A stretch of 64,000 nt of DNA from the IMG/VR virus record IMGVR_UViG_3300033407_000006, positions 1 to 64,000 of that record; one strand, written 5' to 3'. The position numbers and the translations under genes are program-made. This document shows positions 7,560 to 44,839 of this stretch, in pieces. The stretch comes from a virus (taxonomy: Duplodnaviria > Caudoviricetes). The notes beneath the pieces were generated by a model. The model was not told where the DNA came from. It ran no database searches and worked only from the letters and a program-made list of their open reading frames with translations. Position 1 is the stretch's first letter. Each line of letters starts with the position of its first letter.

Positions 7560-7609
7560 AACGTCACTCCGTCATTATTGAAGGGCCCCGGCGATGGCCG
7601 GGGCGCTGA

Positions 7610-21818: not shown

Positions 21819-21839
21819 CAGTACCTCCGTTTAGGCGAC

Positions 21840-21942
21840 TCATAACCCGTCGCTGAAGACGACGCGCAATAGCTGTCGGGTTCGCGTTCGATTCAGTGGT
21901 GCGCCGTCGTCGGCGCGGCGCGTCTTACCTTTGTCGTTATGC
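21840..21942 (+). repeat. attC site A1 (103 bp)
   Basis: TCATAAC-5-GCT(G)AAGAC...GTCTTACC-6-GTTATGC. Confidence 0.8.
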
Positions 21943-22155: not shown

Positions 22156-22178
22156 GGTGTTTCTCCTGTCCGCAAGAT

Positions 22179-22197
22179 GTTTAGCTAATTGTTATGC
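22179..22197 (+). other. Degenerate attC / simple recombination site A2
   Basis: GTTTAGC-TAATT-GTTATGC; no matching TAAC or hairpin upstream. Confidence 0.45.
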
Positions 22198-22509
22198 GTA
22201 CAAACATTCACGCCCAGCCATCTCTGCGGAAATCCAGTCTCCATCCATCGCATTTCCATTGATGGCCTTCTCCAGTTGCCGCAGCGTGTCCCGCAAGGAT
22301 TTCTCTAAATCGTTTATCCGGTCTTGCTTTATGCTCACAGTACCCTTCAGCTTCACGTTCTCGTCCCGCAGGTCTTTCAGTTCTGCGGCTATCGTGTCCA
22401 AAAAACCAACTGGATCTGCACTTGCCAACAGATTACCGCCGCTTATCATGTCGGCGAGTCTTCCAAAAGCCGCGTCAATTCTCGCCAGTTTCCCTTTCAT
22501 GCTTCCCAT
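22192..22509 (-). CDS. Cassette A3 coiled-coil hypothetical protein
   Basis: RBS GGAGG before the ATG at 22509; stop in the R' box. Confidence 0.7.
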   Translation of the reverse strand: MGSMKGKLARIDAAFGRLADMISGGNLLASADPVGFLDTIAAELKDLRDENVKLKGTVSIKQDRINDLEKSLRDTLRQLEKAINGNAMDGDWISAEMAGRECLYA

Positions 22510-22526
22510 AGTTTCCTCCAAAATTC

Positions 22527-22592
22527 GCATAACCAGCGGGTCAACTCGGATTGCGCAAACTGCCGCGCAACCGGTTACCCTTGTCGTTATAA
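22527..22592 (+). repeat. attC site A3 (66 bp)
   Basis: GCATAAC-5-GGT(C)AAC...TTGCGC/GCGCAA...GTTACC-6-GTTATAA. Confidence 0.9.
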
Positions 22593-22778
22593 ATCTTTGT
22601 GCGAAAGAGTGGCGGCACGTACGTACTCGCTTGGAGTAATTCCTGCCACCACAGCTTTGCGCTCTACCTCATCCCACTCTTCAGCCGTCCAGCGGGTTTG
22701 CTTAACAACGTCCCGCACAGGTTTGCGGCTGGTCGATCCTTGCGGCCTGCCCCCGCCTCGCCATCCTCCTTTAGGCAT
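22587..22778 (-). CDS. Cassette A4 ribbon-helix-helix DNA-binding protein
   Basis: 'GGGRPQG...TRWTAEEWDEVERKA..AGITPSEYVR'. Confidence 0.7.
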   Translation of the reverse strand: MPKGGWRGGGRPQGSTSRKPVRDVVKQTRWTAEEWDEVERKAVVAGITPSEYVRAATLSHKDL

Positions 22779-23004
22779 GGTCGCCCTCCACAAATGAGCA
22801 TGGTGCATAATCAAGAGGATCTCCACCGAGCATCCCCGGCTTTATGTTCCATCCACAGCGCCAGGGGTCAATCATACTTGCCAGCTCCGAGCGCAGTGCG
22901 TTCTTTTGCAGGACAAAGCCGGTGAATCGCTGCCGGTATCTGCACCCCGCCGCACATTCGGGCGGGGTGCCGGTATTCGTTGGGTCTGCCGGTAGTGGCC
23001 TCAT
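22771..23004 (-). CDS. Cassette A4 small Cys-containing protein
   Basis: ATG overlaps upstream stop (ATGA); coupled to RHH gene. Confidence 0.5.
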   Translation of the reverse strand: MRPLPADPTNTGTPPECAAGCRYRQRFTGFVLQKNALRSELASMIDPWRCGWNIKPGMLGGDPLDYAPCSFVEGDHA

Positions 23005-23189
23005 ACCCACCCCCCAGTTTCTGGGTCATATGCTTGGCGGCCACAAAAAACCGGATCAGGGCTGTGCGAAACGCGCACCAACGAAGCAGCACCAACAAGA
23101 CGGGCAGACTCGAAGCGCAGGTACGCGAGGCCAGCAAGCGGGGTGGAATCAGCGAGGGTGCCATTGATGTGAATTTCATAAGTTTCCAT
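23001..23189 (-). CDS. Cassette A4 small protein
   Basis: 62 aa, RBS AGGAG, behind a strong promoter. Confidence 0.65.
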   Translation of the reverse strand: METYEIHINGTLADSTPLAGLAYLRFESARLVGAASLVRVSHSPDPVFCGRQAYDPETGGWV

Positions 23190-23209
23190 GTTTGTTCTCC
23201 TATGTCGTT

Positions 23210-23249
23210 AAGTTGATTTAAATATATTTCAACTTTGTTTTCTTGTCAA
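23210..23249 (-). promoter_or_regulatory. Internal sigma70 promoter and operator of cassette A4
   Basis: TTGACA-17-TATATT; palindrome AAGTTGA-N12-TCAACTT (23210-23235). Confidence 0.75.
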
Positions 23250-23301
23250 TACAAAAAAACAACTAAACTATTAATTTGCCACGGAAGAGACGCCCAAAGA
23301 T

Positions 23302-23359
23302 TTATAACAAGTCAATCAACCGGATTCGCTACGCTCTCCGGTTATTTCAGTCGTTAGAT
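23302..23359 (+). repeat. attC site A4 (58 bp)
   Basis: TTATAAC-5-AAT(C)AACCGGA...TCCGGTTATT-6-GTTAGAT. Confidence 0.9.
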
Positions 23360-23376
23360 TCTAAATCTGCGCAAAA

Positions 23377-24171
23377 TCAGACAAAGCACATGCCGCTCGA
23401 ACAGTATCCGCCCGCATCGAATAGGGTCGGTTCTGCGGTAAAGTCCACCTGGTCCAGCGGTGTGCATGATCGGTGCAGCCAGGCGCACGGGTCGAACGCC
23501 TGCATTTCCCTCTCGAACGCCACCGCTTGAGCAAATTCGTCCGGTGCGTTCTCCTTCAGGTCTTTCCATTCGTCGTCGGCTTGGTTCGGGCACATCCAGC
23601 AACGCGACCTGGGCGGCTTCGGCCACCCCATCTTCTCGACTTCGCGGATTCCGTGGTGCCTCTTCATCGGCACATCGTGAATCATCGGAAACCGGATAAG
23701 CCCTTTTTCCCATTCCGGCCCCGCCATCATTCGCAAAGCCCGGCGCGTTTCGTCCATGCTGAATCCGATCCACATTTTCACCTTTGAGCGGGTCAAACCG
23801 AATGTCTTGCTCAAAAAACTCTGAATGACTCGGTTTTTCCATTTGCTTGAACAAAACCCCGGCATCTTGCCGACGTTCCCGGTCTCGTCTGTCCATGTTG
23901 GCAAAATCATGGTCTTCCCGCTCGGGTCAAGCCAGTTCGGATCTTTTGCATAATGACCGCCCCACTCATCGCAGCACACACGATGAATTTCTACCCCTAC
24001 CCCTGCCAGTGCAGGCAACGTAACGGCGTTAAGGTATTGCCACGTTGTCCCGCATTCCCGACCAGTGTCGGCAATCACCGCAAGATCCGGCTTCGGCAGC
24101 TTTCCTTGAATTATCAGCGAAGCGATACAGTTGCTTTGCGTCCCGCCTCCGCTGCTAAAAACCTCAACCAT
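23377..24171 (-). CDS. Cassette A5 PAPS-reductase-like (adenine nucleotide alpha hydrolase) protein
   Basis: 'FSSGGGTQS...ADTGRE...PRSRCWMCPNQ'. Confidence 0.8.
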   Translation of the reverse strand: MVEVFSSGGGTQSNCIASLIIQGKLPKPDLAVIADTGRECGTTWQYLNAVTLPALAGVGVEIHRVCCDEWGGHYAKDPNWLDPSGKTMILPTWTDETGNVGKMPGFCSSKWKNRVIQSFLSKTFGLTRSKVKMWIGFSMDETRRALRMMAGPEWEKGLIRFPMIHDVPMKRHHGIREVEKMGWPKPPRSRCWMCPNQADDEWKDLKENAPDEFAQAVAFEREMQAFDPCAWLHRSCTPLDQVDFTAEPTLFDAGGYCSSGMCFV

Positions 24172-24210
24172 TTAACCCCCTATCGGGCTGCGCCCGAGCG
24201 CAGATTTAGA

Positions 24211-24268
24211 ACCTAACCCAGCGGTGAAGCGGATTCGCTCCGCTCTCCGCTTACCTCAATCGTTACCT
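24211..24268 (+). repeat. attC site A5 (58 bp, last of array A)
   Basis: ACCTAAC-5-GGT(G)AAGCGGA...TCCGCTTACC-6-GTTACCT. Confidence 0.9.
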
Positions 24269-24802: not shown

Positions 24803-27283
24803 TCAATCGTTCCCTGCCAAAATCTTTTTGGCCCGCTCCAGCGCCTCGTTTCTCTCCCGGTCGCTGGCCTCTTCAACCGGCGTGTAATCGACCAAGTAGA
24901 AGAAGCAAACGGTATCGAAAAGGTCCGGGGATTTGATGCCCTGCGAGGCCATTTGATCCTTGGGAAGGATGGAGTAGCGGCCCTTTTCGTCCATCTTGTA
25001 AGGGATTTTGCTGCCCTGCTCCACGATCTTCTTGTTGCGGGGGATATGAATGCGCTGCTGCCTTAAGGCCTCCCTGGCCTGATACGAGGCGTAGGCCCGC
25101 AGGTTCTTGTATCGGCGCTTGTCGGTCTCCGAAAACGGCGGAAGGCCCCAATGGATTGTTTCGCACGGAACGCCCAGCTCTTCGAGCGTCAGGATGACGG
25201 TGCGACCCGGCCCGTCGCCGTCGATTGCAACGGTGATGTTGGGGAAGTCTTGAACCCGCTGATAGATCTCTCGGGCAAAGGCCAATTCGTCCTTGTCCAG
25301 GTATTCGACCGTCTCCACGATATCGACCTTGCGATCCGGGCCGTAGCCGCTCACTTTGGCGATGGACCAAACGGACGAATCCCGGAACTTCCCTTCAGCA
25401 ACGTCTGCGGTCAGAATCCAGCCCCAGGCCTCTTTGTGCTCAATCTGATTGGTCTGCGCATCCTCAAGCCATGATTTCGGAATGAGAAAGCCGCTCATGT
25501 TGTCGGGTAGCCGCCCCAGAACCTTGATCTGGTACTCAGGGCTGTGGTGCCCGCCGTACTCAATCAGCTTCATTTCGATGAATTCGCGGGTGACAAGCGG
25601 ACTTTCTTCGGAGTTGAGATTCAACGTCTTGTAAAGACTGGAGTTTTGCCCCCACGCGTCGGCAAAGTGACCGTTTGCCCGCGTCGGCTGCGAGACCATG
25701 ATATATCGGTTTCCGGCTTGGGTCAGGGCGCCGCGCAAAACGCCGTGAATGACATCATCCACGCCCGAGGCCTCATCCACCACGCACAGGTAATTTTCGT
25801 TGTGCTGGCCCGCCAGTGATTCCGGCTTGGACTTCGAGGCGGTACGGGGGATGACGTACCACGAATCTTTCCAGTGCTTGTTGAAGTACCGCTTTGTTTC
25901 CTTGACGAAGTGGCCCCGCTGGTAAGGGTTGATAGCCTCCACGTCGGCGATGACCTCATCCATGTACTTCCATACGCCCGTGCGGCACTGGTCGATGCTG
26001 TTTGCGGTCAATAGGGCGTTGCTCAAGGGGTAAACGCGAAGATGCCAATCGAAGAGCCAAGCGAGCAGAAAGGTCTTGCCGGTATTATGAAGAACGGTGA
26101 AGTCTCCACCAAGAAATTTGCTGTTTCCGTCGAGGATGAAGCCGTAATAGTCACCTTCGCCTAGTGGAGCGCAGCTTCTTATCCCGAAATTAAGGTTGGG
26201 CCGGTTCTTGTTTCTATCTATCGGTTTCCTTCTTTCTACTCGGACAGGTATCTTGTCGATATTTCTGCCTATGTTGATCCGCCAATAATCTCCCACCGCT
26301 CCGGTGTTGCAGCATTTTTTTCGAGTCTTATTAACTGTAGCATGACAACCAATCGATTTAGCCAGCCACACAATATCTCTTGCGAATCTTTCGCTCTTTT
26401 GAACAACGTCGAATGCTGTGCCCGCGCTTGCTAAAAACCCATCAGTATCAATAATGCCAGCCAAAAGCTCTAGCCTGTCTTGGTATGGCGCAAGCAAGTA
26501 TTTTTTAGGTATGTGCAGTTCATCTGTTAAACCATGTGCTCGAAGAGTTTCGATGAATGGATTGGCCCTCCCTTTTCCTATCCCAATGTGCCACATCCTG
26601 GCTTTGCCGCTCGCCCCCCAATAGGTAAGCCTGTAGCCCTTAGAAACTGCATACCGGCCCCATGCCTCGCTTACTTCTCTATCTGGTGTCGTTATCGTTG
26701 GCGTGTGAATATGTCCATCTCCTAGCCAGAGTCCGAGTATATATGCCGGGATCGGTAGCTCTTCGGGCTCCCAGCCGAAATCATTTACACTCGCCCTGTA
26801 GACAGCATGGCAACGCTTTCTATCGGCTCCCCATTGCAGCCAATCCCTAACCGTCACCTCAGTTTTCTCTCCAGACTCTCTGCGGCCTTTTGAGTTTGTT
26901 GCGACAAGGCAAAGGATATGACTTTCGTTGAAGACGTGGCTAGACCCGTCGTTGTAGGTGAAGCGATACAGCGCCTCCCGGCCACGTTTTAGCGCCAAGA
27001 CGTTTCGCGGCGTACCGTCATCGCCCATAAGGATGTCGCCCACATTCACGCTCTCAACCGGCTTTATCTCGCCGCTATGCAGCATGATTTCGGTTCCAAG
27101 GCCGAAGCAGCCGTGCCCGGACGCTACCGCAACCTGGGCCCCGTGCTCCTGCGCCAAGCGAATGAAATCCTCCTGCTGCCAGGACATCCGCTGTCGACAA
27201 TGGTGATCGACGTAATCCATGAGGTTGTTACGGTAGCGGGCGCAGAAATCGATGTAATCGGGATTGGAAAAGAGGGTGCTCAT
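24803..27283 (-). CDS. pacB: Terminase large subunit with intein
   Basis: Split Walker A 'ASGHG/TGKT', Walker B 'VVDEASGV', RuvC-like 'TADVAEG'; 484 aa after splicing. Confidence 0.92.
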   Translation of the reverse strand: MSTLFSNPDYIDFCARYRNNLMDYVDHHCRQRMSWQQEDFIRLAQEHGAQVAVASGHGCFGLGTEIMLHSGEIKPVESVNVGDILMGDDGTPRNVLALKRGREALYRFTYNDGSSHVFNESHILCLVATNSKGRRESGEKTEVTVRDWLQWGADRKRCHAVYRASVNDFGWEPEELPIPAYILGLWLGDGHIHTPTITTPDREVSEAWGRYAVSKGYRLTYWGASGKARMWHIGIGKGRANPFIETLRAHGLTDELHIPKKYLLAPYQDRLELLAGIIDTDGFLASAGTAFDVVQKSERFARDIVWLAKSIGCHATVNKTRKKCCNTGAVGDYWRINIGRNIDKIPVRVERRKPIDRNKNRPNLNFGIRSCAPLGEGDYYGFILDGNSKFLGGDFTVLHNTGKTFLLAWLFDWHLRVYPLSNALLTANSIDQCRTGVWKYMDEVIADVEAINPYQRGHFVKETKRYFNKHWKDSWYVIPRTASKSKPESLAGQHNENYLCVVDEASGVDDVIHGVLRGALTQAGNRYIMVSQPTRANGHFADAWGQNSSLYKTLNLNSEESPLVTREFIEMKLIEYGGHHSPEYQIKVLGRLPDNMSGFLIPKSWLEDAQTNQIEHKEAWGWILTADVAEGKFRDSSVWSIAKVSGYGPDRKVDIVETVEYLDKDELAFAREIYQRVQDFPNITVAIDGDGPGRTVILTLEELGVPCETIHWGLPPFSETDKRRYKNLRAYASYQAREALRQQRIHIPRNKKIVEQGSKIPYKMDEKGRYSILPKDQMASQGIKSPDLFDTVCFFYLVDYTPVEEASDRERNEALERAKKILAGND
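26084..27109 (-). mobile_element. Intein (342 aa) with LAGLIDADG homing endonuclease
   Basis: Starts CFGLGTEIML, ends VLHN before Thr; 'LGLWLGDG' and 'LAGIIDTDG'; lower GC. Confidence 0.93.
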
Positions 27284-27567
27284 AGATGCAGCCAAGGCTT
27301 TGCGGCGATATCGGGGATCAACTCCAGAAGCTCCCCTTCGGTTGCGATTGAAGCCTCGAACGATTCTCTTCCGGCATGGACGGCAACGCCCCGGCCCCCT
27401 TGCCGGTGATGTGCCGGGCAAAGGGGGATTCTCGGGGCGTTGCCGCGCTTTGAGCCACCGCGCCGGATATGGTGAATTTCAGCCGGTGACGTGCCGTAGC
27501 CGAGGCGGTGACAGGCCATGCAGCCGAACGAGGCGAGTTGCGAATCGGTGAAGTCTGTGTCGGTCAT
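27280..27567 (-). CDS. ref: Ref-like RecA-dependent HNH nuclease
   Basis: 'GCMAC...EIHH...IPLCPAHHR...VH'. Confidence 0.7.
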   Translation of the reverse strand: MTDTDFTDSQLASFGCMACHRLGYGTSPAEIHHIRRGGSKRGNAPRIPLCPAHHRQGGRGVAVHAGRESFEASIATEGELLELIPDIAAKPWLHL

Positions 27568-34135: not shown

Positions 34136-34939
34136 TTACTCTGTGAGGGCTGAAGATAATTTTTTTTGCAAATCGGACTTGAGCTTCTCTTTCCGGTCTC
34201 GGATTTGAGCTATTTCCTGCCTAAGCTCTTCGTCCTTCATCCGCCGCTGCTGTTCATCACGAATTCTGCCCTTCTCTTCCAGGTCTTCGCGCAGCTTGCG
34301 AAGTTTCGCCAGAAAGACCGGCTTCAGGTTTTCAGTGGGTTGTTCAGCCCCGGCCACCATGGAAATGAGAGCCCGGCCTTCCGCAGTCGTATCCTGTTGC
34401 AGCAGGTTGGAGACAGCGGCCCTGGGCAAAATCCCTTGTTCAACCGCCTCCCGCGCCACGGCTGCGCGGTGTTCCGGGTCAAAGCCTTCGGAGAGATACC
34501 AGCGAGCCAGCCCGCCTCGTTCTTTTGCGCGAGCAACCGCCCGGTCGTATGCGTCCCGAAAGCAAACCCTCGCCCCAACCTCATCCCCGCTCTGAAAAAT
34601 CGCCCGGCATGCGCTCCAGGCTTCCAAAATCTCCGGGCAGATGACGGCACTCTTGCTCTCGTCCGACAAGCCGAGCGCCTTTGCCCAGGCCTCGTTGCCG
34701 GACAAAAAGCCGTCAGGGTTTTCGGCTTCAATCGCTTCGATGAAATCGGCGGGGAGGGGGAAAGTCCGAAACTTGTGAGTTCGGCTCACCCTCTCTATCG
34801 CCCGAAAAACTTTGTCCTTGCCGTAGGGGGCCAGAATGTCCTCATAGGCCCGGATTTTGGTTGCAGAGACATCAACGCTGATTAACTCCGACAAGGCAAA
34901 GAGTCTGCACCCTATCGCCTTCCTGGTTTCCTCGTTCAT
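34136..34939 (-). CDS. Replication protein P-like (helicase loader-type)
   Basis: 'FPLPADF...EAW...GDEVGARVCFRDAY'; follows the initiator gene. Confidence 0.65.
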   Translation of the reverse strand: MNEETRKAIGCRLFALSELISVDVSATKIRAYEDILAPYGKDKVFRAIERVSRTHKFRTFPLPADFIEAIEAENPDGFLSGNEAWAKALGLSDESKSAVICPEILEAWSACRAIFQSGDEVGARVCFRDAYDRAVARAKERGGLARWYLSEGFDPEHRAAVAREAVEQGILPRAAVSNLLQQDTTAEGRALISMVAGAEQPTENLKPVFLAKLRKLREDLEEKGRIRDEQQRRMKDEELRQEIAQIRDRKEKLKSDLQKKLSSALTE

Positions 34940-35874
34940 CGGCCCTCCATGTATCGCCGGAACTCTTCCCGGTTCCGATCCGTCGTTGTGGCGGCGCGGC
35001 CTGCGTTGTTTTTAGCGCCACCACGGTCCTGCTCCCTTGAAAGCCAATTGACAAGGAACGCCTTGATCCCGCTTTTGGTTTTCCGACGCTTGGGGTTCGC
35101 GTCCGACCATGCCGCTGCCTTGCGAAGCTCCTGCAACACATCGACCGCCGGGAAAAGCTGCGTCCACTGGTCAATGTCCGACTGCGGGACGTGGTGCGCC
35201 TCGCCCCCTACCAGTGGGATCTGAATCACTGATCCGCCCTCGGGGGGCAAGACTTCGATGGTCGGCTCTGAGTTTTGCTCAGAGCAAGAATCTTCGTAAG
35301 AAGATTCCTCTCCTTTTGTTTTTAAAGGAGAAGGAGAAGGAGAAGGAGAAGGAGAAGGGGTTCGGTCGAACGTCCGAACGCTGCGTTCGGGGTTGTTCGA
35401 TTTTCGTTGCGTAACATCTTGATTTTTACGGCTTTCTGTTTTTGCTTCGTTCGGGCTGTTTTTGGTGGTCGTTCGGGAGCCGTTCGGGAGAGGTTGCGCG
35501 GTCCCTTTTTGTGCCTTTCGAGCCGCCGCACTTGCCTTCCCGGCCTTCCTTGCAGCCGCCTTTCTTTGCTCACCGTTTACCGCCCAAGGCTGGTGTTCTT
35601 CCCAATCTTTCGGGGCGTACCCGTTGGGTGTTTCGATCAGGAACTTTGCTTCGAGCATGCCCCTTACGAACACGCCGGGCTCCCCTTCCCAGCCAGCAAC
35701 GTCTTCAATGTCTTCGTTCGACCACCCGTTCAACACTCCGTTCGGGCGTTGTTCGGCAACTGTGGTCCAGAAGCAGATCAGGTTTTCCATGGCGGTGGGG
35801 CCCACCATGCGTCGCAATCGCTTGAATTTCCTATGTCTCGGCAATTTCACGTCTATGCGAATGTCAGTGTTCAT
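34936..35874 (-). CDS. Phage replication initiator (lambda O-like)
   Basis: N-terminal wHTH, SPSPSP linker, C-terminal 'KRRKT...FLVNWL'. Confidence 0.75.
   Translation of the reverse strand: MNTDIRIDVKLPRHRKFKRLRRMVGPTAMENLICFWTTVAEQRPNGVLNGWSNEDIEDVAGWEGEPGVFVRGMLEAKFLIETPNGYAPKDWEEHQPWAVNGEQRKAAARKAGKASAAARKAQKGTAQPLPNGSRTTTKNSPNEAKTESRKNQDVTQRKSNNPERSVRTFDRTPSPSPSPSPSPLKTKGEESSYEDSCSEQNSEPTIEVLPPEGGSVIQIPLVGGEAHHVPQSDIDQWTQLFPAVDVLQELRKAAAWSDANPKRRKTKSGIKAFLVNWLSREQDRGGAKNNAGRAATTTDRNREEFRRYMEGR
35361..35490. repeat. Iteron-like repeats, probable lytic origin
   Basis: CGTTCGG at 35384, 35448, 35470, 35481 (CGTTCGGGAG twice) plus an inverted copy at 35374, inside the initiator gene. Confidence 0.5.
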
Positions 35875-36880: not shown

Positions 36881-36902
36881 GGCGGGCTAAACTATGTTAT
36901 GC
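36881..36902 (+). other. attI-like half site at head of cassette array B
   Basis: GGCGGGCTAAACTAT-GTTATGC. Confidence 0.6.
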
Positions 36903-37133
36903 CTTAAAGCCGTACGATTTACGGCCCCTCCCAAAAGGTCCGGCATTTATCCTCTCCTCCCCTGCTCGCGCTGTCCACTTCGCCTTCCAAATTTTCTTCC
37001 CAGGCTCGGTATCTTGTGTTCCCTCAATGACATCCCCACCCCAAGCTTTTTCGATAGCCTCGGCTTCGGTGGCTGCCTCAACGCAACACATTGTTTGGGT
37101 GCTTTCGTAGCCTTCCACGTAAAAAATAGGCAT
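36897..37133 (-). CDS. Cassette B1 hypothetical protein
   Basis: ATG inside the R'' box, SD (AAGGA) inside attC B1, stop in the R' box. Confidence 0.7.
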   Translation of the reverse strand: MPIFYVEGYESTQTMCCVEAATEAEAIEKAWGGDVIEGTQDTEPGKKIWKAKWTARAGEERINAGPFGRGRKSYGFKA

Positions 37134-37187
37134 AACCAATCCTTTCAGCGGACTCGCTCCGCTCGCGGCTGAAGTCAGTTGTTAGGC
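37130..37187 (+). repeat. attC site B1 (58 bp)
   Basis: GCATAAC-5-CTT(T)CAGC...GCTGAAG-6-GTTAGGC. Confidence 0.85.
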
Positions 37188-37510
37188 AGCCCCAACAGTT
37201 GCCGAGCCGCCGCAATGTCGGCAGCGGTCACGCCGGTCGGCACGCTCTTGTACTCAAGGTCGCGCTTCAAGCCGTCCCATGCTTTGTGTAGCGCCATCAC
37301 GCCTTCATGGTGTTCTTGGCTCAGGTAGCAGCAGCCAGGCGCCGAGAAACCCCCTCCGTCAGCCACCAGCGTTTCGAGATCAATCCGCTCGCGGTTGTCG
37401 AGTTGAGCCCACTTGCGGCCGACCTTCGTCACTGTCACTTCTCGTGGCAGCGCGTGCCGCTGGCTTTGCGGCACCCACCAAAGTATTTGCCCTTCCGTCA
37501 GTTTTTCCAT
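37175..37510 (-). CDS. Cassette B2 hypothetical protein
   Basis: 111 aa, 'VTVTKVGRKWA' phage family motif. Confidence 0.75.
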   Translation of the reverse strand: MEKLTEGQILWWVPQSQRHALPREVTVTKVGRKWAQLDNRERIDLETLVADGGGFSAPGCCYLSQEHHEGVMALHKAWDGLKRDLEYKSVPTGVTAADIAAARQLLGLPNN

Positions 37511-37521
37511 TCTCCGATCCC

Positions 37522-37613
37522 TTCTAACTTATCGTTGCAGGCGACCGCCGAACAGCCGCCTATAGCTTCCTCTTGCGCTCCTGCGCGGCGTCGCCTGAAC
37601 TCAGACGTTATCT
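37522..37613 (+). repeat. attC site B2 (92 bp)
   Basis: TTCTAAC-5-GTT(G)CAGGCGAC...GTCGCCTGAAC-6-GTTATCT. Confidence 0.88.
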
Positions 37614-37811
37614 GCTCAGTGCCTCACCGATAGCGGTTACCAAATTACTTTGATCTTGGCTTTTGCACTCAATGTGTGGCAGCGCATCGGTCAGCATTTT
37701 TCTAAGGGTTTCGTTTTCTTCCCTCAACTCATCCGAGCAGGCCCGCGACATCCGCAGGTGCATTTCAATGTCGGTGATTTTGTCTACTAACTCTCTTTCT
37801 CGTTTGTCCAC
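37608..37811 (-). CDS. Cassette B3 coiled-coil small protein
   Basis: GGAGG-6-GTG; stop in the R' box. Confidence 0.65.
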   Translation of the reverse strand: MDKRERELVDKITDIEMHLRMSRACSDELREENETLRKMLTDALPHIECKSQDQSNLVTAIGEALSR

Positions 37812-37824
37812 TTTTGACCTCCGC

Positions 37825-37889
37825 AGATAACCAATCGTTGCAAGCGGACTCGGCAAACTGCGCCGAGCCCTTGACCTCAGTCGTTATGC
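37825..37889 (+). repeat. attC site B3 (65 bp)
   Basis: AGATAAC-5-GTT(G)CAAG...CTCGGC/GCCGAG...CTTGACC-6-GTTATGC. Confidence 0.88.
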
Positions 37890-38152
37890 AACTCGTCACC
37901 GCCCCACGGCGCTCCCGACTCCCGCAACGCCAACTTGAGCGGCAGAAGCGTGCATACATCACCGTCGGCCAGGTGGCCGTTTGCGTCGAGCGTCTGGCAA
38001 ATTGCGGCGCGCAGCCTTTCAACTTCCGCCGAAAGAATCTCGGCAATATCCACACTGCCGTAACCGCTGCCGGTCATGTCGTCATCTTCGTCGGTCGGCC
38101 CGGCTATCTCGTAGCAAAGGCGCCTCGCCAAATCTATGCTGCCTCGTTTCAT
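37877..38152 (-). CDS. Cassette B4 hypothetical protein
   Basis: 91 aa, RBS GGAGG. Confidence 0.65.
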   Translation of the reverse strand: MKRGSIDLARRLCYEIAGPTDEDDDMTGSGYGSVDIAEILSAEVERLRAAICQTLDANGHLADGDVCTLLPLKLALRESGAPWGGDELHND

Positions 38153-38167
38153 TTCTCAACCTCCGTT

Positions 38168-38235
38168 GCATAACCCGGCAGTCCACCTGACCTGCCGCAT
38201 AAAGCCGCGTCAGTCAGGTGACTTTTGCGTTAGGG
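38168..38235 (+). repeat. attC site B4 (68 bp)
   Basis: GCATAAC-5-AGT(C)CACCTGAC...GTCAGGTGACT-5-GTTAGGG. Confidence 0.9.
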
Positions 38236-38424
38236 TGCTTCGGGGCGGCTCTGTTTTGCGTACAGCTCCAGCCACGCAAAAGCCAAACCCGGCGGGCGTC
38301 TCCCGCTCGGCCCGTCATCTTCCCAACTCTGCCAAGTGCGGTACGGTGTCCCCGTCAACCTGGCCGCTTCTGCCATAGAGAGACCCGACTTCTGCCGGGT
38401 CTCTCTCAGTTCCTTGGCAGTCAC
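38230..38424 (-). CDS. Cassette B5 XRE HTH protein
   Basis: 'ELRETRQKSGLSMAEAARLTGTPYRTWQSWE'; GTGA overlap with upstream gene. Confidence 0.75.
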   Translation of the reverse strand: MTAKELRETRQKSGLSMAEAARLTGTPYRTWQSWEDDGPSGRRPPGLAFAWLELYAKQSRPEAP

Positions 38425-38657
38425 TGGTTGCCATCCGGACGGACGATTTCTGCCCCTTCCTCGACAAGACGGGAGCAAAGGTCAATACACTCCTGACTTC
38501 CTACTCCATAGCCAATTTTTCCGCGCAGTTCGTCGGGGACAGGACAGGCCGCGACCCCTTCGTCACTCATTGGATCGCCGTCGTAACTTTTGACCTGTTC
38601 CGCATTCGCCGGCCAGCAGAATTGTCCGTCATTCATTACTACGTATTTGCTTTTCAT
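38421..38657 (-). CDS. Cassette B5 small protein
   Basis: 78 aa, RBS AAGGAG, behind a strong promoter. Confidence 0.7.
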   Translation of the reverse strand: MKSKYVVMNDGQFCWPANAEQVKSYDGDPMSDEGVAACPVPDELRGKIGYGVGSQECIDLCSRLVEEGAEIVRPDGNQ

Positions 38658-38706
38658 GGCTGTACTCCTTCTGGTTTGGGTTATTTGTTCCGCTTTCTTG
38701 ATTCTA

Positions 38707-38756
38707 ATTATATGCACATTGTGACTGATTGCAAGTAAAATAATTCACTTTGTGCA
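38707..38756 (-). promoter_or_regulatory. Internal sigma70 promoter and operators of cassette B5
   Basis: TTGCAA-16-TATAAT; inverted pair TGCACATTGTGA / TCACTTTGTGCA. Confidence 0.75.
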
Positions 38757-38781
38757 TTTTTATTTGAGCGGCGCAAAATCA

Positions 38782-38850
38782 CCCTAACCAGTCGGTCAAT
38801 CGGACCGTCGCGAAAGTGCCGCGCCGATCCGCTTACCTTTATCGTTAGTT
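38782..38850 (+). repeat. attC site B5 (69 bp)
   Basis: CCCTAAC-5-GGT(C)AATCGGA...TCCGCTTACC-6-GTTAGTT. Confidence 0.88.
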
Positions 38851-39096
38851 TGCTTGTGGCACTTCCAGCGGCCCGTACCACTTCCCACCGATCTTATTGA
38901 CACGCTCGCGGTAGCCGGTAAGCGGGCGGCACCCAACAAAACCACACGCGGCTTTAATGACTTGGTAAATTTCTACGCTGTTCGCCCTTCCTCCGCCGTC
39001 ATCGTTCCAATAAAAACCTTCGGCGGTCGGTTCCTCTTTCGACCAGCGCAAACTAACACCAGTTTCGAGCGGACGGTTTTCACTTTCCGTTTCCAT
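38845..39096 (-). CDS. Cassette B6 hypothetical protein; RBS and first 15 codons lie inside attC B6
   Basis: GGAGGAGG and ATG in the attC loop; stop in the R' box. Confidence 0.7.
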   Translation of the reverse strand: METESENRPLETGVSLRWSKEEPTAEGFYWNDDGGGRANSVEIYQVIKAACGFVGCRPLTGYRERVNKIGGKWYGPLEVPQAN

Positions 39097-39136
39097 GGGT
39101 TGCGGCCTCCTCCGCCGCTCAAACTAAACGTTAGGC
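39051..39136 (+). repeat. attC site B6 (86 bp, last of array B)
   Basis: AACTAAC-5-TTT(C)GAGCGG...CCGCTCAAA-6-GTTAGGC. Confidence 0.85.
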
Positions 39137-39771: not shown

Positions 39772-42207
39772 TTATTGGATAGTCACGCCACCTCGATCGA
39801 GGCGGATGCAGGCGTCGGCAGCTTCGATCAGCTCCGGGGTCTGCGTGATGAAAAACTCCCGGCTGTGCGTCCCGATTTCCTGCGCCCGGCGCTTGATGGC
39901 GATGAATTCGACCTTGCGATCCGCGTCAAGAGCGCCGTCTTTTTCGTCGGTGAACAGCGTCTCGAATGGGCGGCTTGTGCGGCTCAGGGAAACCAGAGCA
40001 AAGGCCCTGGTGATAGCGTCTTCAATAATGGTCACTTCCCCGCCGGACATATCCCGGATGCTCTTCTCTTCGTTGCGCTCCCCATCGTAAACGGTGATGT
40101 CGAAAGTCTCCTTCAGGCCACCGTCAACTTTCTCCTTCTGGGTCTCCAGCCGCACCGAGAACCGGGGGCCGTAGCAGGACCGAAGCAGGTCGTTTGTGAG
40201 GCTGGAGATCATCGGCCCGGAATCGTCGATTTCGAGCTGGATGATTCCGTCGTTGCTGCATGCCTTCGCCAGCACTTTCCAGCCGGTCATTTCGTCGTTC
40301 AGTCGCTCAATTTCTTCCGCGATGATCTGGGCCTTCTCCCGCTTCTCCTTCAGCGCTTCAATGCGGCCACGAATGGAGCCGAGGCGTTCCGAAGCCGCTT
40401 TCAGCTCGGCCTCTTTCCCGTCGAGGGCGATGGTGCGGAAGCGGCGCTTTTCCTTGAGTTCGGCCAGGGTCTTTTCCATGTCGCCGCTCAGGGTCGCTTC
40501 GAGCTGGGAGATCTCCACCTTCAGTTCAGCGATGACCGCTTCCGCCGCAGCCAGGAGCTTGACGGCCTCGCGTTCCACGATCTCCTTTTCATTTTCGGAT
40601 TGTCTCGACTCGGCCAAGAACTCGGTTTCCGCTTTGGAGTAGCGATCCTTTGCCCCGTCAAGATCCGCCTGAATCTCAGCGATGCGCATTGAGGCGCTTT
40701 CCAACTCGGGCAGCTTCGCCGCCAGGGCTTTGAGCCGGTTCGCCCTGCTGGTTGTCTCTTCGAGAGTTTGCCGCAGCTTTGCCCCGTGGGCTTCCAGCCG
40801 CCGCAGCTCTTCGGTGAGCGAGGGCAGCTCTTCGAGCTTCAGGGCATGGCCGCTGATTCGCTCCTGAATGACGGGAATCAGCCCCTTGGCCTCCACGGCG
40901 TCCTTGAGCAGGGGGCATGCCTCGTTGACCCATGAACTGCCGTCAGCGCGGCAATCCAGCGCACCCAGCGCGGACACGCGACGTTGCAGCGAGGCGAGTT
41001 CGACCTGCGCCGTCTCCATGGCAGCCTTGATGCCGCTCAGGGCCGTCACCTTCTCCCGTGCCTCCGAATAGGCGCTACGGGTCGCCTCAAGCTCGGCCTG
41101 CGTCGTCTGGATATCGGACTCGCACTTTGCGAGGGCCTGCGCCGCGCTGCGGATGTCCTCGCACATGGCAACGATGGCGTCCAGTGTCTTGGCGCGAGCC
41201 TCCAAGGTAGTGACCGTGTTTTCGAGTTCGGCCTTGGCCGACGTGTACTTCCGACTCAGCGCTTCCGCTTTGGCCGCATACTCCCGCCGCTTCTTTTCGA
41301 GCTGACCGTTCAGGGCGGCGGCGTTGTCCTTTGCCTTGTCCAGCGCCCGGCGCTTATCGTCAAGGCGATTCCTGGAGACGGCTTCGGCGGCGTTGGTAAG
41401 CTCCACGTCGCGGATCTGGCTGTCCATTGCCGCAACCGCGTCGCGCAGGGCCGCGATGTCGGATGCTCCGACTTCCAAGGCCGCAACAGCTTCGGCTTCC
41501 TGCTGGGTGAGTCTGTCGAAAATGGACGTCTCGGCTTCGATGGCGTTCAAGTCCCGTGTCCGGCTGACTACCTGATCGGCGAGGTGGTTCACGACGCCCT
41601 GGGCCTTTTCGCCCTGCTGCCGGATGTGATCCAGATCGAGCAGCTCGGTGACGATGCCGAGGATTTCAGAGCGGGGGTAGCTGGAGAGCTTGCGGGCCTC
41701 CTGGGCCCTGAAAACGCTGGTGAAGAACAGCGACGGAGAGCCCACCAGCTCTTCGATGGCGGCGTCATAATCGCGGGTCTTGCCGTCCTTGACCGATTCG
41801 TTGTAGGGAACCCAAGCGGACTGGTTGGGGTTGTTCCACTGAAGGCCGGATTCGTCCCGGAACAGGTAGCACTCCTGCTTGCGCTTCTCTGCGTCGATCA
41901 GCAGCAGGGAACGATAGACGCAGCCGCCCACCTCGAAAATCAGTTCCTTCATGGCGTCGCGGCCATAGCACTGATCGTAGTAGCTGAAGGCGTTCGGGCT
42001 CCAGTCTTTGCTTTCCCGCAACTTGTAGGGCATCAGACGGTAAGGGTGCAGGTTGTCGGTGATGGTCGTCTTGCCGCTGCCGTTGCTCCCGCAGATGGCA
42101 ATCAGCCCTTTGGCCGGAAGCGTTGTCAGGTCCAGGACGAGTTCTTCCAGCCCCATCCCTGCGCGGATACCCTTGAATCCTCGAAGCGTCAATTTAATCG
42201 GTTTCAT
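39772..42207 (-). CDS. sbcC: SbcC/Rad50-like ATPase
   Basis: Walker A GSNGSGKT, long coiled coil, 'MSGGE', 'LFTDEKDGALD'. Confidence 0.92.
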   Translation of the reverse strand: MKPIKLTLRGFKGIRAGMGLEELVLDLTTLPAKGLIAICGSNGSGKTTITDNLHPYRLMPYKLRESKDWSPNAFSYYDQCYGRDAMKELIFEVGGCVYRSLLLIDAEKRKQECYLFRDESGLQWNNPNQSAWVPYNESVKDGKTRDYDAAIEELVGSPSLFFTSVFRAQEARKLSSYPRSEILGIVTELLDLDHIRQQGEKAQGVVNHLADQVVSRTRDLNAIEAETSIFDRLTQQEAEAVAALEVGASDIAALRDAVAAMDSQIRDVELTNAAEAVSRNRLDDKRRALDKAKDNAAALNGQLEKKRREYAAKAEALSRKYTSAKAELENTVTTLEARAKTLDAIVAMCEDIRSAAQALAKCESDIQTTQAELEATRSAYSEAREKVTALSGIKAAMETAQVELASLQRRVSALGALDCRADGSSWVNEACPLLKDAVEAKGLIPVIQERISGHALKLEELPSLTEELRRLEAHGAKLRQTLEETTSRANRLKALAAKLPELESASMRIAEIQADLDGAKDRYSKAETEFLAESRQSENEKEIVEREAVKLLAAAEAVIAELKVEISQLEATLSGDMEKTLAELKEKRRFRTIALDGKEAELKAASERLGSIRGRIEALKEKREKAQIIAEEIERLNDEMTGWKVLAKACSNDGIIQLEIDDSGPMISSLTNDLLRSCYGPRFSVRLETQKEKVDGGLKETFDITVYDGERNEEKSIRDMSGGEVTIIEDAITRAFALVSLSRTSRPFETLFTDEKDGALDADRKVEFIAIKRRAQEIGTHSREFFITQTPELIEAADACIRLDRGGVTIQ

Positions 42208-43415
42208 ACCTTCCCTCCCCTGGTCATCTCAATCAGCTCTGCGTGTTCGCGGCCCTCAATCACTTCGGCGATCTCCAGCGTTGCCGCCGGGATCTCAATC
42301 GCGTTTGCCTCGCCCCATCGCCGGACCTTCTCGGGCAAAGAAGACATCTGCGATATCCCCGCCGCCCGTTGCCGGGTCACGGGAATGATGGTCATTTCGA
42401 TTTTCACACTGCGGGCTCCGGCCTGAAGCAATTTCGCCTCGAAAGCCTCGCGGTCAACCTTATGGCGCTCTTCGTCGGGGATGCTGTACCGCACCCGAAC
42501 CGTTGCGTTGTCCACGCCGTCCATGATGGCCTCAGCGACGGCTATTTCGATACGCTCCCAGGCGTCTTCAATGGTCAGCAGGCGGCGGGCCGGGGTTTTG
42601 TGGAAAGTGGAAGCCTTTACTTCGCCGATCTCATGCAGGAAAAAGCCTTTCTCTTCCGCCTCGCCGAAATTCAACCGCCCAGGGCTGCCGCTGTAATGGA
42701 TGTTGCCGGGGAAGGATTGCATCTTGTGAACGTGGCCGAAGCAGGAAACGTCACAATGCGCGGCCTGAATATCGGACACCGAAAACTCGAAATCCTCCCC
42801 GGTCGCGGTCACGCCGCCGTAGGCCGCGCCCGTGATCATTCCGTGGGCAACAAGAACCGTCGGGCGGTTGGTGACGGCATTGGCCGCTCCGAACGCCGCC
42901 AGCACGTCGCCGATAGCTTCCCGCGCCAGCATGGATGTCACCTTGCGGGACTCGCCGCCGAACTGTGCGATCAGATTCGCTTTGTCGGGGCTGGGGATGC
43001 AGGTGAAGACCGCAGCGGGGGCGATAGAGATGGTTCCGGGCTCCACGAACTCCGCGCCGCCGACGTGCTGATGCAGTTCGACCTGCTCGATCTCTGTTGC
43101 GACGTGGATGGGAAACTTCGAGCGCAGCGCCCGGAAGATGTACGGAGCTTCCCGGTCGTGGCTGCGGGTGCCGCGCACGATGAGGACCGGGCAGATATCG
43201 GCCAGCGCGGACACGAACCGGATCGCGGCCCTGGCGGCGTCCGAATCCAGCCGGATCGGGCCGTCGTGTTCGTCTACGGTATCCCCGGCCAGAACGGAGA
43301 CATCCGGTTCCAGATTCGCGGCCTGCTTCAGAATGTAATTTGTGACGGTGATGGTCTCTGCCAGTTTCTCGGGCTTATTCGAGAAGTGCAGATCGGCGGT
43401 GTGCAGGATTTTCAT
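42204..43415 (-). CDS. sbcD: SbcD/Mre11-like nuclease
   Basis: 'HTADLH', 'AGDT', 'GTRSHD', 'GHVH', 'YSGS'. Confidence 0.92.
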   Translation of the reverse strand: MKILHTADLHFSNKPEKLAETITVTNYILKQAANLEPDVSVLAGDTVDEHDGPIRLDSDAARAAIRFVSALADICPVLIVRGTRSHDREAPYIFRALRSKFPIHVATEIEQVELHQHVGGAEFVEPGTISIAPAAVFTCIPSPDKANLIAQFGGESRKVTSMLAREAIGDVLAAFGAANAVTNRPTVLVAHGMITGAAYGGVTATGEDFEFSVSDIQAAHCDVSCFGHVHKMQSFPGNIHYSGSPGRLNFGEAEEKGFFLHEIGEVKASTFHKTPARRLLTIEDAWERIEIAVAEAIMDGVDNATVRVRYSIPDEERHKVDREAFEAKLLQAGARSVKIEMTIIPVTRQRAAGISQMSSLPEKVRRWGEANAIEIPAATLEIAEVIEGREHAELIEMTRGGKV

Positions 43416-43609: not shown

Positions 43610-44839
43610 CTATTCCGTCACGCCGAACTCTTCGGCTCTCGCTTTGACTGCTGCCCCGAAACCCTCGGGGTTTGTGCGCACTTCCTCGCGGATCTTGTTC
43701 GCCAGCGCCCTGAGTTGGTCCAGGGGAAGATCCGAGACGGAAACGCCGTCGGTTTCGTCCAGCGCCGCCCATGCGACGAGCTGCTGATAGCTGACACCGA
43801 TATGCTTTGCAGCTCCGGTCATGTAGCTGTGAATTCTGGCCCTTGCCTCTTCTTCCGTGGGCCCTGTGTCAGAAAGGCGTTCCTTTGGTGCAGGCTCGGC
43901 TTCCTTGACGGCGGGCTTCGCGTTGAAGACCTTGGCGGCTTTCTGCCCTCGCTCGGCGCGGCCTTCGGCGTACCGGGCCAGCTCCATGGCATCGATGGAC
44001 AGCTCCAACAGCGGAATCCACTGAGTCTGTTTTTTCCCCTCGGGCGTCGTGACCTCTTCGGGGCTCTTGACGATCTCCAGGTATGATTCGCCGCCAAGCA
44101 GCCCGTCGAACCGCCCGAGAATGGACCGGATGCGGCGCAGCAACGCCACGCTGTAGCTGAAGCCGTACCAGCTCTTCGAGGGGATCATGATTTCGTCCAG
44201 GCCTCGCAGCCCGGCGACGTGGAAACGGTAGATGCCGCCGAACTGCATGACGCGGCCCGTGGGGTCCACCGGCTTTTCAGGGTTGAGCGGCGCAACCTTC
44301 CAATCGTCCTTGGTCGCACGTCCCTTGTGGCCCTTGGGCAGGTAGCGCACCATGAGCTTCGATCCCTCGTAGAAACTCGCGGCTTGAACGCTGCCGCTGC
44401 CGTCGAAGGCCTTGAATCCGTGATGCAGGGCCTTTTCCAGCTCCCCGACGGACAACCAGACGGGAATGCGCCGAACATGCCCGTCCGGGTCGGCATAGTT
44501 TCCCCGAATGAACTGAGCATCGGCGGGCCGCGTGAAATCGCAATCCCGAATCACGAAATGATCCGCGTTCTTCGGGTAAAGCTTCGATGTCCGCGTCTTG
44601 GGCGCTCCCCCCAGGGCCCGGTCGATCTCGTCGTAGGGCATGCCCTGGGCTTCCAGTTCCTTGAACTTGGCGAGTTCCTGGGTACTGAGGCCCTGCTTCG
44701 GCACCTTGACGCCCGTGCGGATGATCCCCCCGCAACGAACGCGGTCCTTGTGGCCCAGGAGAAGCGCGACTTCCTCTTCATCGCCTCCTTCGATGGCGTA
44801 TGCCATGGCCGTGTTGTGGTCCAAATTTTCTTCCATCAT
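43610..44839 (-). CDS. Recombination-associated protein (Gp3-like/annealing family, tentative)
   Basis: 'GGIIRTGVK...PKNADHFV'; upstream of sbcDC. Confidence 0.5.
   Translation of the reverse strand: MMEENLDHNTAMAYAIEGGDEEEVALLLGHKDRVRCGGIIRTGVKVPKQGLSTQELAKFKELEAQGMPYDEIDRALGGAPKTRTSKLYPKNADHFVIRDCDFTRPADAQFIRGNYADPDGHVRRIPVWLSVGELEKALHHGFKAFDGSGSVQAASFYEGSKLMVRYLPKGHKGRATKDDWKVAPLNPEKPVDPTGRVMQFGGIYRFHVAGLRGLDEIMIPSKSWYGFSYSVALLRRIRSILGRFDGLLGGESYLEIVKSPEEVTTPEGKKQTQWIPLLELSIDAMELARYAEGRAERGQKAAKVFNAKPAVKEAEPAPKERLSDTGPTEEEARARIHSYMTGAAKHIGVSYQQLVAWAALDETDGVSVSDLPLDQLRALANKIREEVRTNPEGFGAAVKARAEEFGVTE

Follow-up and report, generated by a model that had tools for sequence, protein, structure and literature searches.

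A tailed phage known from a metagenome assembly very probably carries a genuine six-cassette integron array, one of two in a genome without an integrase. The array (array B, positions 36881–39136) lies in a 64,000-nt window, the whole stretch of DNA analysed here (positions 1–64,000 of IMG/VR record IMGVR_UViG_3300033407_000006). The entire genome measures 74.9 kb and has direct terminal repeats, despite which CheckV puts its completeness at 77%. Array B is flanked by minus-strand sbcCD-like genes (39772–43415) on one side and a minus-strand replication-initiation-like gene (34936–35874) on the other, which bears out the position between recombination and replication genes given in a first-pass annotation of the sequence. 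That annotation also counted two arrays in one phage, and a second is indeed present at 21.8–24.3 kb. Array A (21596–24268, plus strand) is built like array B and opens with the same 20-bp head.

The evidence for attC sites comes from a covariance model, R1, built from 31 bona fide attCs upstream of IntI1-like genes in bacterial genomes only. Two plasmid intI1 loci were discarded from the reference, being truncated copies beside ISCR1. The model superseded a simpler search for attC-like hairpins by regular expressions and folding, which proved too noisy. R1 matches the window exactly ten times at E ≤ 0.04 (range 1e-13 to 0.04), always on the plus strand; six matches fall in array B and four in array A, and the eleventh-ranked match has E > 2. 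The first-pass annotation had placed complete attCs of 58–92 nt at 37130, 37522, 37825, 38168, 38782 and 39051, and had named a covariance model as one way to check them. All six are R1 matches, scoring 24.5–60.2 bits on the plus strand (E 1e-13 to 4e-4) and at most ∼10 bits on the minus strand. As positive controls, R1 finds the three published attCs of phage TJE1 and those of a bacterial integron locus (L072). It finds no match in the other 12.9 kb of the genome or in two relatives, and in 168 kb from 24 unrelated viral loci no match falls below E 0.26. Only two of 20 related phage loci (412 kb) contain matches, and across ∼630 kb of other phage DNA the matches are confined to two related contigs. 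These controls exclude a chance origin of the array B sites. A scan of 20–41 kb with Rfam, which holds no attC family, returned just one chance miRNA-like match.

The aligned sites share the layout of integron attCs. All six array B sites read xxxTAAC ... GTTAxxx, i.e. an R'' box (RYYYAAC) and an R' box (G|TTRRRY). In the ten sites of the two arrays, the inner four R-box pairs never vary, and pairing of the outer three R-box positions with the adjacent R' is largely absent. Each site follows the order R'', 5 nt, L'' with an extra base, GA(C/T), loop, L', 5 to 6 nt, R'. A bulge at model column 16 and the GA(C/T) triplet occur in every site; these features and the unequal spacers on the two sides set the polarity of an attC, and the geometry of the array B sites is that of attC-aadA2 read in the gene sense. 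Pairing in the L helix reaches 93% over the ten sites, six of the nine pairs show compensatory double changes, and the covariation score is 0.41 vs 0.13 in shuffles. The mean pairwise identity of the six array B sites is just 57%. The combination of diverse sequences and invariant box geometry that the annotation described thus holds up, and it is the conserved structure with little conserved sequence that characterizes attC. By every sequence and structure criterion tested, the array B sites are integron-type attC; as such, their folded bottom strands may be substrates for an IntI integrase at G|TT.

The cassette boundaries are equally regular. The G|TT crossovers of array B lie at 36896, 37181, 37607, 37883, 38229, 38844 and 39130, and the unit lengths that had been read from the sequence (285, 426, 276, 346, 615 and 286 bp) are exact between successive G|TT points. 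Each unit opens with the TT of one G|TTRRRY core, closes with the G of the following core and contains one or two small genes and a terminal attC. In five of the six array B cassettes, the leading bases complement the cassette's own R'' over 9–10 nt vs 4–5 nt for the adjacent box; B2 is the exception (5 vs 4 nt). In array A, cassettes A3 and A4 have cognate complementarity of 14–20 nt. Across both arrays, adjacent R' boxes match over 4–6 nt, and cognate complementarity of 9–20 nt is intact in eight of ten cassettes. Because each cassette start complements its own and not its neighbour's R'', the units would once have been circles joined at G|TT; past integron-type joins are thus implied by the sequence. 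This signature, which spans each gene, agrees with the annotation's description of the units as integron-type cassettes.

Could these sites instead be structures of the phage's own, formed between genes in RNA or DNA and serving for example as terminators, RNase III sites or hairpins for translational coupling, with a mere likeness to attC? They do lie between co-directional genes and overlap stop codons, Shine-Dalgarno sequences and start codons, and attC sites have been described as weak terminators (PMC9892861). We nonetheless regard such convergence as highly improbable. No site has a T-run or a terminator-like score, none of the six array B sites is among the terminator-like matches, and at ∼57% likeness they do not behave as REP elements. 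Their asymmetry (extra bases, 5- vs 6-nt spacers) matches the top strands of bacterial attCs and lies on the untranscribed strand, and 22 of the 23 bases in the 5' arm of attC B4 are those of an attC from a bacterial integron. An RNA role would also leave the cognate complementarity across each gene unexplained, and a homologous cassette is found in a bacterial integron (see below).

Array B begins with the head site (36881–36900, plus strand), GGCGGGCTAAACTATG|TTAT, with the crossover G at 36896. Cassette B1 (36897–37181, plus strand) encodes a 78-aa protein of no assigned family on the minus strand (36897–37133). The ATG of this gene lies within the complement of R'' and its TAA within the complement of the preceding R'; the cassette start complements the cassette's own R'' over 9 nt vs 4 nt for the adjacent R'. 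The gene's codon score is +12.6, vs −41.6 for the plus-strand ORF. The 58-nt attC B1 (37130–37187, plus strand) scores 41.3 bits (E 1e-8; 10.3 bits on the minus strand). Cassette B2 (37182–37607, plus strand) carries a minus-strand gene (37175–37510) for a 111-aa Phage_ProQ_C_like protein (Pfam PF24203, E 1e-15) with 20 homologs at 46–68% identity. Its TGA stop (37175–37177) lies in the TCAG spacer of attC B1, 5–7 nt past the 37181|37182 boundary, and the cognate complementarity of the cassette is the weakest of the set. The 92-nt attC B2 (37522–37613, plus strand; 37 bits, E 2e-7) folds on the bottom strand into a long imperfect hairpin (z −1.6). Cassette B3 (37608–37883, plus strand) encodes ∼67 aa on the minus strand (37608–37811) from a GTG start with GGAGG 6 nt upstream. 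The cassette start pairs with the cassette's own R'' over 9 nt vs 5 nt for the adjacent R', the codon score is +9.2 vs −24 for the plus-strand ORF, and the 65-nt attC B3 occupies 37825–37889 (plus strand; 24.5 bits, E 4e-4).

In cassette B4 (37884–38229, plus strand), a minus-strand gene (37877–38152) encodes 91 aa with no assigned family and ends in the TCAG spacer of attC B3. The gene has a codon score of +19.2 and GGAGG 7 nt ahead of its ATG, and the cassette start pairs with the cassette's own R'' over 10 nt vs 4 nt for the adjacent R'. The 68-nt attC B4 (38168–38235, plus strand) has the top R1 score (60.2 bits, E 1e-13) and a bottom-strand fold z of −2.9. Cassette B5 (38230–38844, plus strand) contains two minus-strand genes, one for a 78-aa protein of no assigned family (38421–38657) and one, whose start is uncertain, for an HTH protein (38230–38478; HTH_31 E 6e-5, phrog_2104 E 1e-6). 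An AT-rich region holds a predicted sigma-70-like promoter (38734 to 38707; TTGCAA, 16 nt, TATAAT; 10 of 12 positions match). Cognate complementarity is 9 vs 5 nt, and the 69-nt attC B5 (38782–38850, plus strand; 44.8 bits, E 1.5e-9) has a bottom-strand fold z of −3.4. Cassette B6 (38845–39130, plus strand) encodes 83 aa with no assigned family on the minus strand (38845–39096). The loop of the cassette's attC contains the first ∼15 codons of this gene and its Shine-Dalgarno sequence GGAGGAGG; the cassette start pairs with the cassette's own R'' over 10 nt vs 5 nt for the adjacent R', and the codon score is +5.2 vs −17.5. The 86-nt attC B6 (39051–39136, plus strand; 32.7 bits, E 2e-6) is the final site of the array, and downstream of its G|TTAGGC the phage backbone resumes. 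NCBIfam, PADLOC and PHROGs searches returned nothing for the B1, B3, B4, B6 or 78-aa B5 proteins. A protein atlas likewise gave no usable match for the latter, leaving a toxin-antitoxin role for the B5 pair unsupported.

All attC top strands lie on the plus strand and all cassette genes on the minus strand, co-directional with sbcCD and the replication genes. Integron ORFs typically, though not by strict definition, lie on the attC top strand and are read from Pc; here they lie on the bottom strand in all ten cassettes, vs 33 of 34 cassettes in the sense orientation at the bacterial reference loci. The codon-usage score favours the minus-strand ORF in every one of the ten, and Pfam matches and Shine-Dalgarno sequences also back minus-strand coding. 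A 'longest ORF' rule called the wrong strand in four phage cassettes, because the real ORFs end a few bases past the G|TT boundary; we therefore used codon scoring. The named cargo families are a ProQ-C-like protein and an HTH pair in array B, and a PAPS-reductase/DndC-like enzyme and an RHH protein in array A. A guess from these family names would be that the cargo has a probable role in host takeover or counter-defence.

Array A has the same plan. Its attCs (21840–21942, 22527–22592, 23302–23359 and 24211–24268, all plus strand) match R1 at 16.6–45.8 bits and close cassettes of 325, 650, 767 and 909 bp. The 650-bp unit possibly represents a fusion of two cassettes at a degenerate site near 22179–22192, and the final cassette encodes a PAPS-reductase/DndC/SspD-like protein. 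The array A head (21596–21615, plus strand) and the array B head are exact duplicates, and these 20 bp occur in the 74.9-kb genome only at 21596 and 36881; the DNA flanking the two heads is otherwise dissimilar. R1 does not match the array B head, which has no hairpin partner, and neither strand of the head folds better than shuffles (z ∼0).

The head loosely resembles the attI1 simple site, GCCCTAAAACAAAG|TTAG: written as GGGCTAAAC-TATG|TTA, it can be set beside GCCCTAAAACAAAG|TTA. Like attI1, it would be a hairpin-less, double-stranded site opening an array, though the phage candidate has a shorter spacer and no adjoining integrase gene. It is similar, too, to the 3' half of the weak attC with which an array of another phage (G001) begins, and may therefore be a truncated attC rather than an attI-like site. 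The head sequence is absent from 80 IntI1-type integron loci, and a search of viral contigs with the head motif found nothing; in metagenome contigs the motif matches four times, each time in unrelated coding DNA with neither attC nor phage similarity.

Neither array has an integrase beside it. Searches with PF00589, TIGR02249 and PF00239 gave no match anywhere in the 74.9-kb genome, which thus encodes no tyrosine or serine recombinase; for an intI adjoining an array, TIGR02249 and PF00589 yielded no candidate. With six co-oriented attCs in 2.0 kb, four more 13 kb off and no intI, the phage carries a CALIN, an integrase-less cluster that would depend on a host IntI. With no recombinase gene of its own, the phage would have to borrow the host IntI to operate the cassettes. 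The 'dedicated, site-specific system' for swapping genes that the annotation suggested is supported by the attC and cassette signature and by signs of exchange (see below); the phage has no recombinase of its own, and the enzyme would come from the host.

Mis-joining of bacterial integron fragments into a phage contig could in principle produce such a picture, the record being a metagenome-assembled genome and attC repeats being able to confuse assemblers. We consider an assembly chimera very unlikely, however. Both arrays are bordered on each side by same-strand phage genes, one 20-bp head opens both, and cassette B2 holds a phage-family gene. The stretch occurs in only one sequencing run, probably the source sample, and array A with its flanks lies there on contigs of even depth (∼12.4). 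Contigs from this sample placed on the stretch (none is displayed for array B) show no joints at cassette boundaries. Moreover, a different phage record from another sample, G001, has the same arrangement.

This second phage and a bacterial integron also provide the evidence for cassette exchange, as judged by sequence. The SbcC of G001 is just 28% identical to that of the present phage, and the G001 arrays flank sbcC. A three-gene cassette homologous to A3 sits at a different position in this distant phage: the central ORF of A3 (767 bp) is 64% identical (E 2.5e-29) to an ORF in a 762-bp G001 cassette. Similarly, the third cassette of an integron from Burkholderiales (L072) encodes, again antisense, a homolog of protein A2a at 59% identity (E 1e-19); among 401 genomes sampled from the class concerned, only one contains it. 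Closer relatives did not emerge. A megablast of 34–44 kb against 50,697 phage records gave no match, IMG/VR loci found by way of SbcC do not exceed 42% identity, and the nearest SbcC protein relative is 49% identical.

How active such exchange might be today bears on a further explanation, in which IntI-type capture happened once or a few times and the arrays are now fixed phage genes with decaying, non-recombining attCs. The missing integrase fits this account, as does uneven site quality, and some or all cassettes may be fossils. R1 scores are variable and partly weak (B3 at 24.5 bits), array A has its degenerate site, and the B6 gene starts within its attC. The bottom strands of B4 and B5 fold convincingly and that of B1 poorly, since at minimum energy attC B1 departs from the canonical hairpin (z 0.1); another four sites do just modestly better than shuffles. 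The megablast, SbcC and head-motif searches also found no polymorphic relatives. Set against decay are the intact cognate complementarity in most cassettes, the well-paired L-box helix, the identity of the two 20-bp heads and the presence of the same cassette elsewhere in a distant phage; source-sample contigs also suggest a second context for one array A segment. On balance, we think fossil arrays possible but rather doubtful.

The arrays suggest that the phage swaps small accessory genes via its host's integron enzyme. On infection of an integron-bearing host, the host IntI would fold and cut attC bottom strands, here the coding, non-template strand, and excise cassettes as circles; it could then put these back into the head site or into other attCs. 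Co-infecting phages might in this way trade early accessory genes with one another and with the host integron. Read-through from the phage operon would express the cassette genes, to which cassette 5 may add its own predicted promoter. intI is SOS-inducible. We tentatively conjecture, as an idea with less than even prospects, that a lineage of soil phages with sbcCD maintains, within the early operon, cassette platforms that lack an integrase, each with a dedicated attI-like landing site and a phage-specific pool of inverted cassettes, borrowing SOS-induced host IntI to trade accessory (probably counter-defence) genes with other phages and with integrons. With genes on the attC bottom strand, phage transcription would both express the genes and expose the recombinogenic strand. 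If this conjecture is true, antisense cassettes in bacterial integrons would be phage-derived.

Phage cassette arrays are of a kind already published: integrase-less attC clusters were first described in virulent phages in 2023, with 17 CALINs among 10,705 genomes, and IntI1 recombines such phage attCs (Qi et al., PMC9892861). The inverted polarity seen here is the unusual feature. Tetrasphaera phage TJE1 likewise has canonical attC arrays between small accessory genes and no intI, and R1 finds its sites. However, TJE1 genes are sense to the attC top strand, whereas those of the present phage are antisense in all ten cassettes. Three sites were found in TJE1, compared with ten sites in two arrays with an identical 20-bp head here; the present arrays also sit in a replication/recombination operon, a layout that recurs in a distant relative. 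Together with cassettes common to another phage and a bacterial integron, these features make for a much richer case than the 2023 reports.

Integrons are the best-known bacterial gene-capture machines. Those of Betaproteobacteria (L046–L085: Thauera, Methyloversatilis and Burkholderiales MAGs; chromosomal and class-1-type) share the attC sequence type and the G|TT boundaries with the phage. Methyloversatilis and Thauera sites have long stretches in common with phage attCs B4, B2 and B5 (the 22 of 23 bases of the B4 5' arm belong to a Methyloversatilis attC, L071), and L072 shares one cassette protein. Unlike these integrons, the phage lacks intI and Pc, its head is unlike any attI there, and its cassettes are antisense rather than sense. 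Integron cassettes often encode anti-phage defences (bioRxiv 10.1101/2024.07.02.601686, 10.1101/2024.07.02.601719). If the phage arrays are active, phages could use a host integrase to shuffle early accessory genes, and genes could flow between phage and integron cassette pools in both directions.

In position and content, between recombination and replication functions, the arrays recall the lambda nin region and moron hot spots, which are runs of small, mostly uncharacterised, dispensable-looking genes in early operons. Those regions vary by homologous or illegitimate recombination, and to our knowledge have no site-specific recombination sites between their genes. Cassette B2 would then give a tangible starting point for studying the origin of cassettes: its gene family lies inside a cassette here but outside cassettes in 24 other phages, whose contigs have no attC within 4 kb of the homologs.

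Array B was examined with an attC covariance model built from sites of genuine integrons, since the test had to avoid circularity. With a plasmid-integron intI1 as the probe, 80 bacterial loci encoding IntI1-like integrases (73–100% identity) were collected, attC sites were taken from the strand upstream of intI, and 31 non-redundant sites of 55–72 nt were aligned, with the R and L helices as the structure. Run with filters off, the model returned ten matches in the window at E ≤ 0.04; all remaining matches had E > 2. Six of the ten, all on the + strand, make up array B: B1 (37130–37187, 41.3 bits), B2 (37522–37613, 37.0 bits), B3 (37825–37889, 24.5 bits), B4 (38168–38235, 60.2 bits), B5 (38782–38850, 44.8 bits) and B6 (39051–39136, 32.7 bits). 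These coincide exactly with the six attC reported by the first-pass annotation, in intergenic positions that by eye carry xxxTAAC at one end, GTTAxxx at the other and paired inner boxes. The other four, also on the + strand (21840–21942, 22527–22592, 23302–23359 and 24214–24265), bear out its claim of a second, independent array, array A. The − strand of the same ten sites scores at most 10 bits. As positive controls, the model recovered the three attCs in the published CALIN (an attC cluster without an integrase) of Tetrasphaera phage TJE1, and those of a bacterial locus, L072. There were no matches in the rest of the phage genome or in two distant relatives, and a further 24 viral contigs (168 kb) gave none below E 0.26.

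The distances between successive crossover points (G|TT) in array B are 285, 426, 276, 346, 615 and 286 bp, exactly the cassette lengths first proposed. The description of diverse sequences with an invariant geometry also stands: the six array B sites average 57% identity, and pairing in the L helix reaches 93% across all ten, with compensatory double changes in six of nine pairs. The last six bases of an R′ box are, in an integron array, part of the following cassette. A cassette is therefore expected to have an R″ box that matches the TTRRRY at its own start, not the adjacent R′. Complementarity between own start and own R″ extends over 9 nt in B1, B3 and B5 and 10 nt in B4 and B6, with B2 as the exception (5 nt), and over up to 14–20 nt in two array A cassettes; the adjacent R′ offers only 4–6 nt, the conserved GTTA core. 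In agreement with this cognate pattern, pairing is mostly absent at the three outer R-box positions of the linear array. Such complementarity is hard to explain except by once-circular units joined at G|TT, and we conclude from these sequence signatures that the array B units are cassettes, more than mere hairpins.

The IMG/VR virus record is 74,876 bp long with direct terminal repeats, and the window covers its bases 1–64000. The phage genes in the window, nearly all on the minus strand, include a portal, tail-fibre-like proteins, a small terminase, RdgC, SbcC-like and SbcD-like nucleases and a replication-initiation-like protein; this gene content marks the source as a tailed phage. Neither a tyrosine recombinase (TIGR02249, PF00589) nor a serine recombinase (PF00239) was detected across the whole genome. 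By its sequence the array is thus a real, well-formed phage-borne CALIN. This kind of element is already known, since a screen of 10,705 phage genomes yielded three complete integrons and 17 CALINs, some in virulent phages; of the six phage attCs assayed in that study (Qi et al. 2023, PMC9892861), five were recombined by IntI1 at G|TT. In the literature searched we found no description of uniformly inverted gene polarity, of a duplicated head site without an integrase, or of attC arrays recurring in a distantly related phage of the same group.

Though the genome lacks any integrase, a 409-aa protein (43610–44839, minus) matches the Pfam Gp3-like family ‘recombination directionality factor-like’ (E 7e-7). 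An 872-aa protein (24803–27421, minus) combines an intein-type Hint domain with a LAGLIDADG homing-endonuclease domain. The gene that harbours this insertion is of unclear family; its PHROG matches comprise unknown families and weak hits to terminase and primase.

The cassette genes are inverted relative to their sites. In the gene sense attC-aadA2 has a 5-nt spacer and an extra base in its 5′ half; by this geometry and by the covariance model, the attC top strand is the + strand at all ten sites. Genes lie on the minus strand in all ten cassettes, antisense to the attC top strand. Codon-usage scoring, with 17 long phage genes as the training set, prefers the minus-strand ORF in every cassette, and the minus-strand starts are preceded by strong Shine-Dalgarno sequences. 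The genes stop at a TAA in the R′ complement or a TGA in the conserved TCAG spacer, and two start at the ATG of GTTATGC. Cassettes of TJE1 are sense, and the bacterial reference loci, with 34 distinct cassettes, have 33 in the sense orientation; the comparison (10/10 antisense versus 1/34) gives a Fisher exact p of ∼4e-9, with strand criteria that differ between the sets.

The cargo is varied. For the B2 ORF, Pfam gives Phage_ProQ_C_like (E 1e-15), and 20 homologs were found. In 24 other viral contigs, homologs of the B2 gene lack an attC within 4 kb, so a phage gene that normally stands free is packaged here as a cassette. The second B5 ORF encodes an HTH protein, and array A contributes a NikA-like RHH protein together with a PAPS-reductase/DndC/SspD-like protein. 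The latter, from cassette A4 (23377–24171, minus), has 264 aa (phrog_424, E 4e-27; PADLOC SspD, E 3e-10). Because its family takes in DNA phosphorothioation enzymes, it may modify DNA as a cassette-borne counter-restriction function.

Both arrays open, on the + strand, with an identical 20-bp sequence, GGCGGGCTAAACTATG|TTAT, found in the whole genome only at 21596 and 36881, in surroundings that are otherwise dissimilar. This head has no hairpin partner, either strand folds no better than shuffles, and the covariance model does not match it. Its likeness to the attI1 simple site GCCCTAAAACAAAG|TTAG is no more than loose, and it is also like the 3′ half of a weak attC that opens an array in another phage. 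The head may be a landing site of the attI type, or else an attC that has been truncated.

We found no close relative of the phage in the collections searched. Aligning SbcC homologs gave 21 IMG/VR loci, two of which contain attC matches; one has a single site at a contig end. The other, a 65-kb phage record (G001) whose SbcC is 28% identical, likewise has no tyrosine recombinase and carries six co-oriented attC on both sides of sbcC, antisense to the genes, sbcC included (6914–9532 and 13312–14750 of its locus), with the cognate R′/R″ pattern of the window phage. One of its cassettes (762 bp, three small ORFs) has a central ORF 64% identical (E 2.5e-29) to an ORF of the 767-bp array A cassette A3, at a different place in the genome. 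The third cassette of L072, a Burkholderiales MAG integron, holds a homolog (59% identical) of A2a, a gene of the 650-bp array A unit; there too the gene is antisense and starts beside its own R″ (L072 282–627). Of the 401 genomes sampled in that class, one has this homolog. The next L072 cassette also appears to finish on an antisense TAA within the complement of R′, so that array may hold several ‘inverted’ cassettes.

Starting from the observed array structure, past joins at G|TT and missing recombinase, we infer the remaining steps. A host IntI would act in trans on folded attC bottom strands, here the non-template strand of the operon, cutting out cassettes and re-inserting them at attCs or the head site; first capture could have used IntI-catalysed insertion of cassettes outside att sites, as reported in a preprint (bioRxiv 10.1101/2022.09.11.507474). 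Cassette genes would be expressed by read-through, and cassette 5 has in addition a sigma-70-like promoter (TTGCAA-16-TATAAT). Terminator-like features were not found among the array B attCs. The bottom strands of B4 and B5 fold convincingly, those of B2, B3 and B6 modestly and that of B1 poorly, so some sites may be weak or dead.

The gap between A2a and its neighbour A2b (22155–22200) lacks a proper attC, and its GTTTAGCTAATTG|TTATGCG resembles the head motif GCTAAACTATG|TTATGC. Either the 650-bp unit arose from two cassettes when the attC between them decayed, or the sequence is a third site of the head type. In the one sequencing run that contains this DNA, positions 22221–22521 form a 301-nt contig of depth 18.2 between phage contigs of depth 12.4. 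A 1,501-nt contig of depth 5.4 comes in from unrelated sequence at ∼22190, only 2 nt away from the crossover point (G|TT) at 22192. These depths add up, so the A2b segment seems, from contigs rather than reads, to have a second genomic context in the same sample, its left break falling at a predicted cassette boundary. The terminal 38 nt of another source-sample contig (436 nt, depth 9.7) equal the 3′ half of attC B3 (37850–37887) with two differences, so similar attC sites occur in other genomes of the same soil community.
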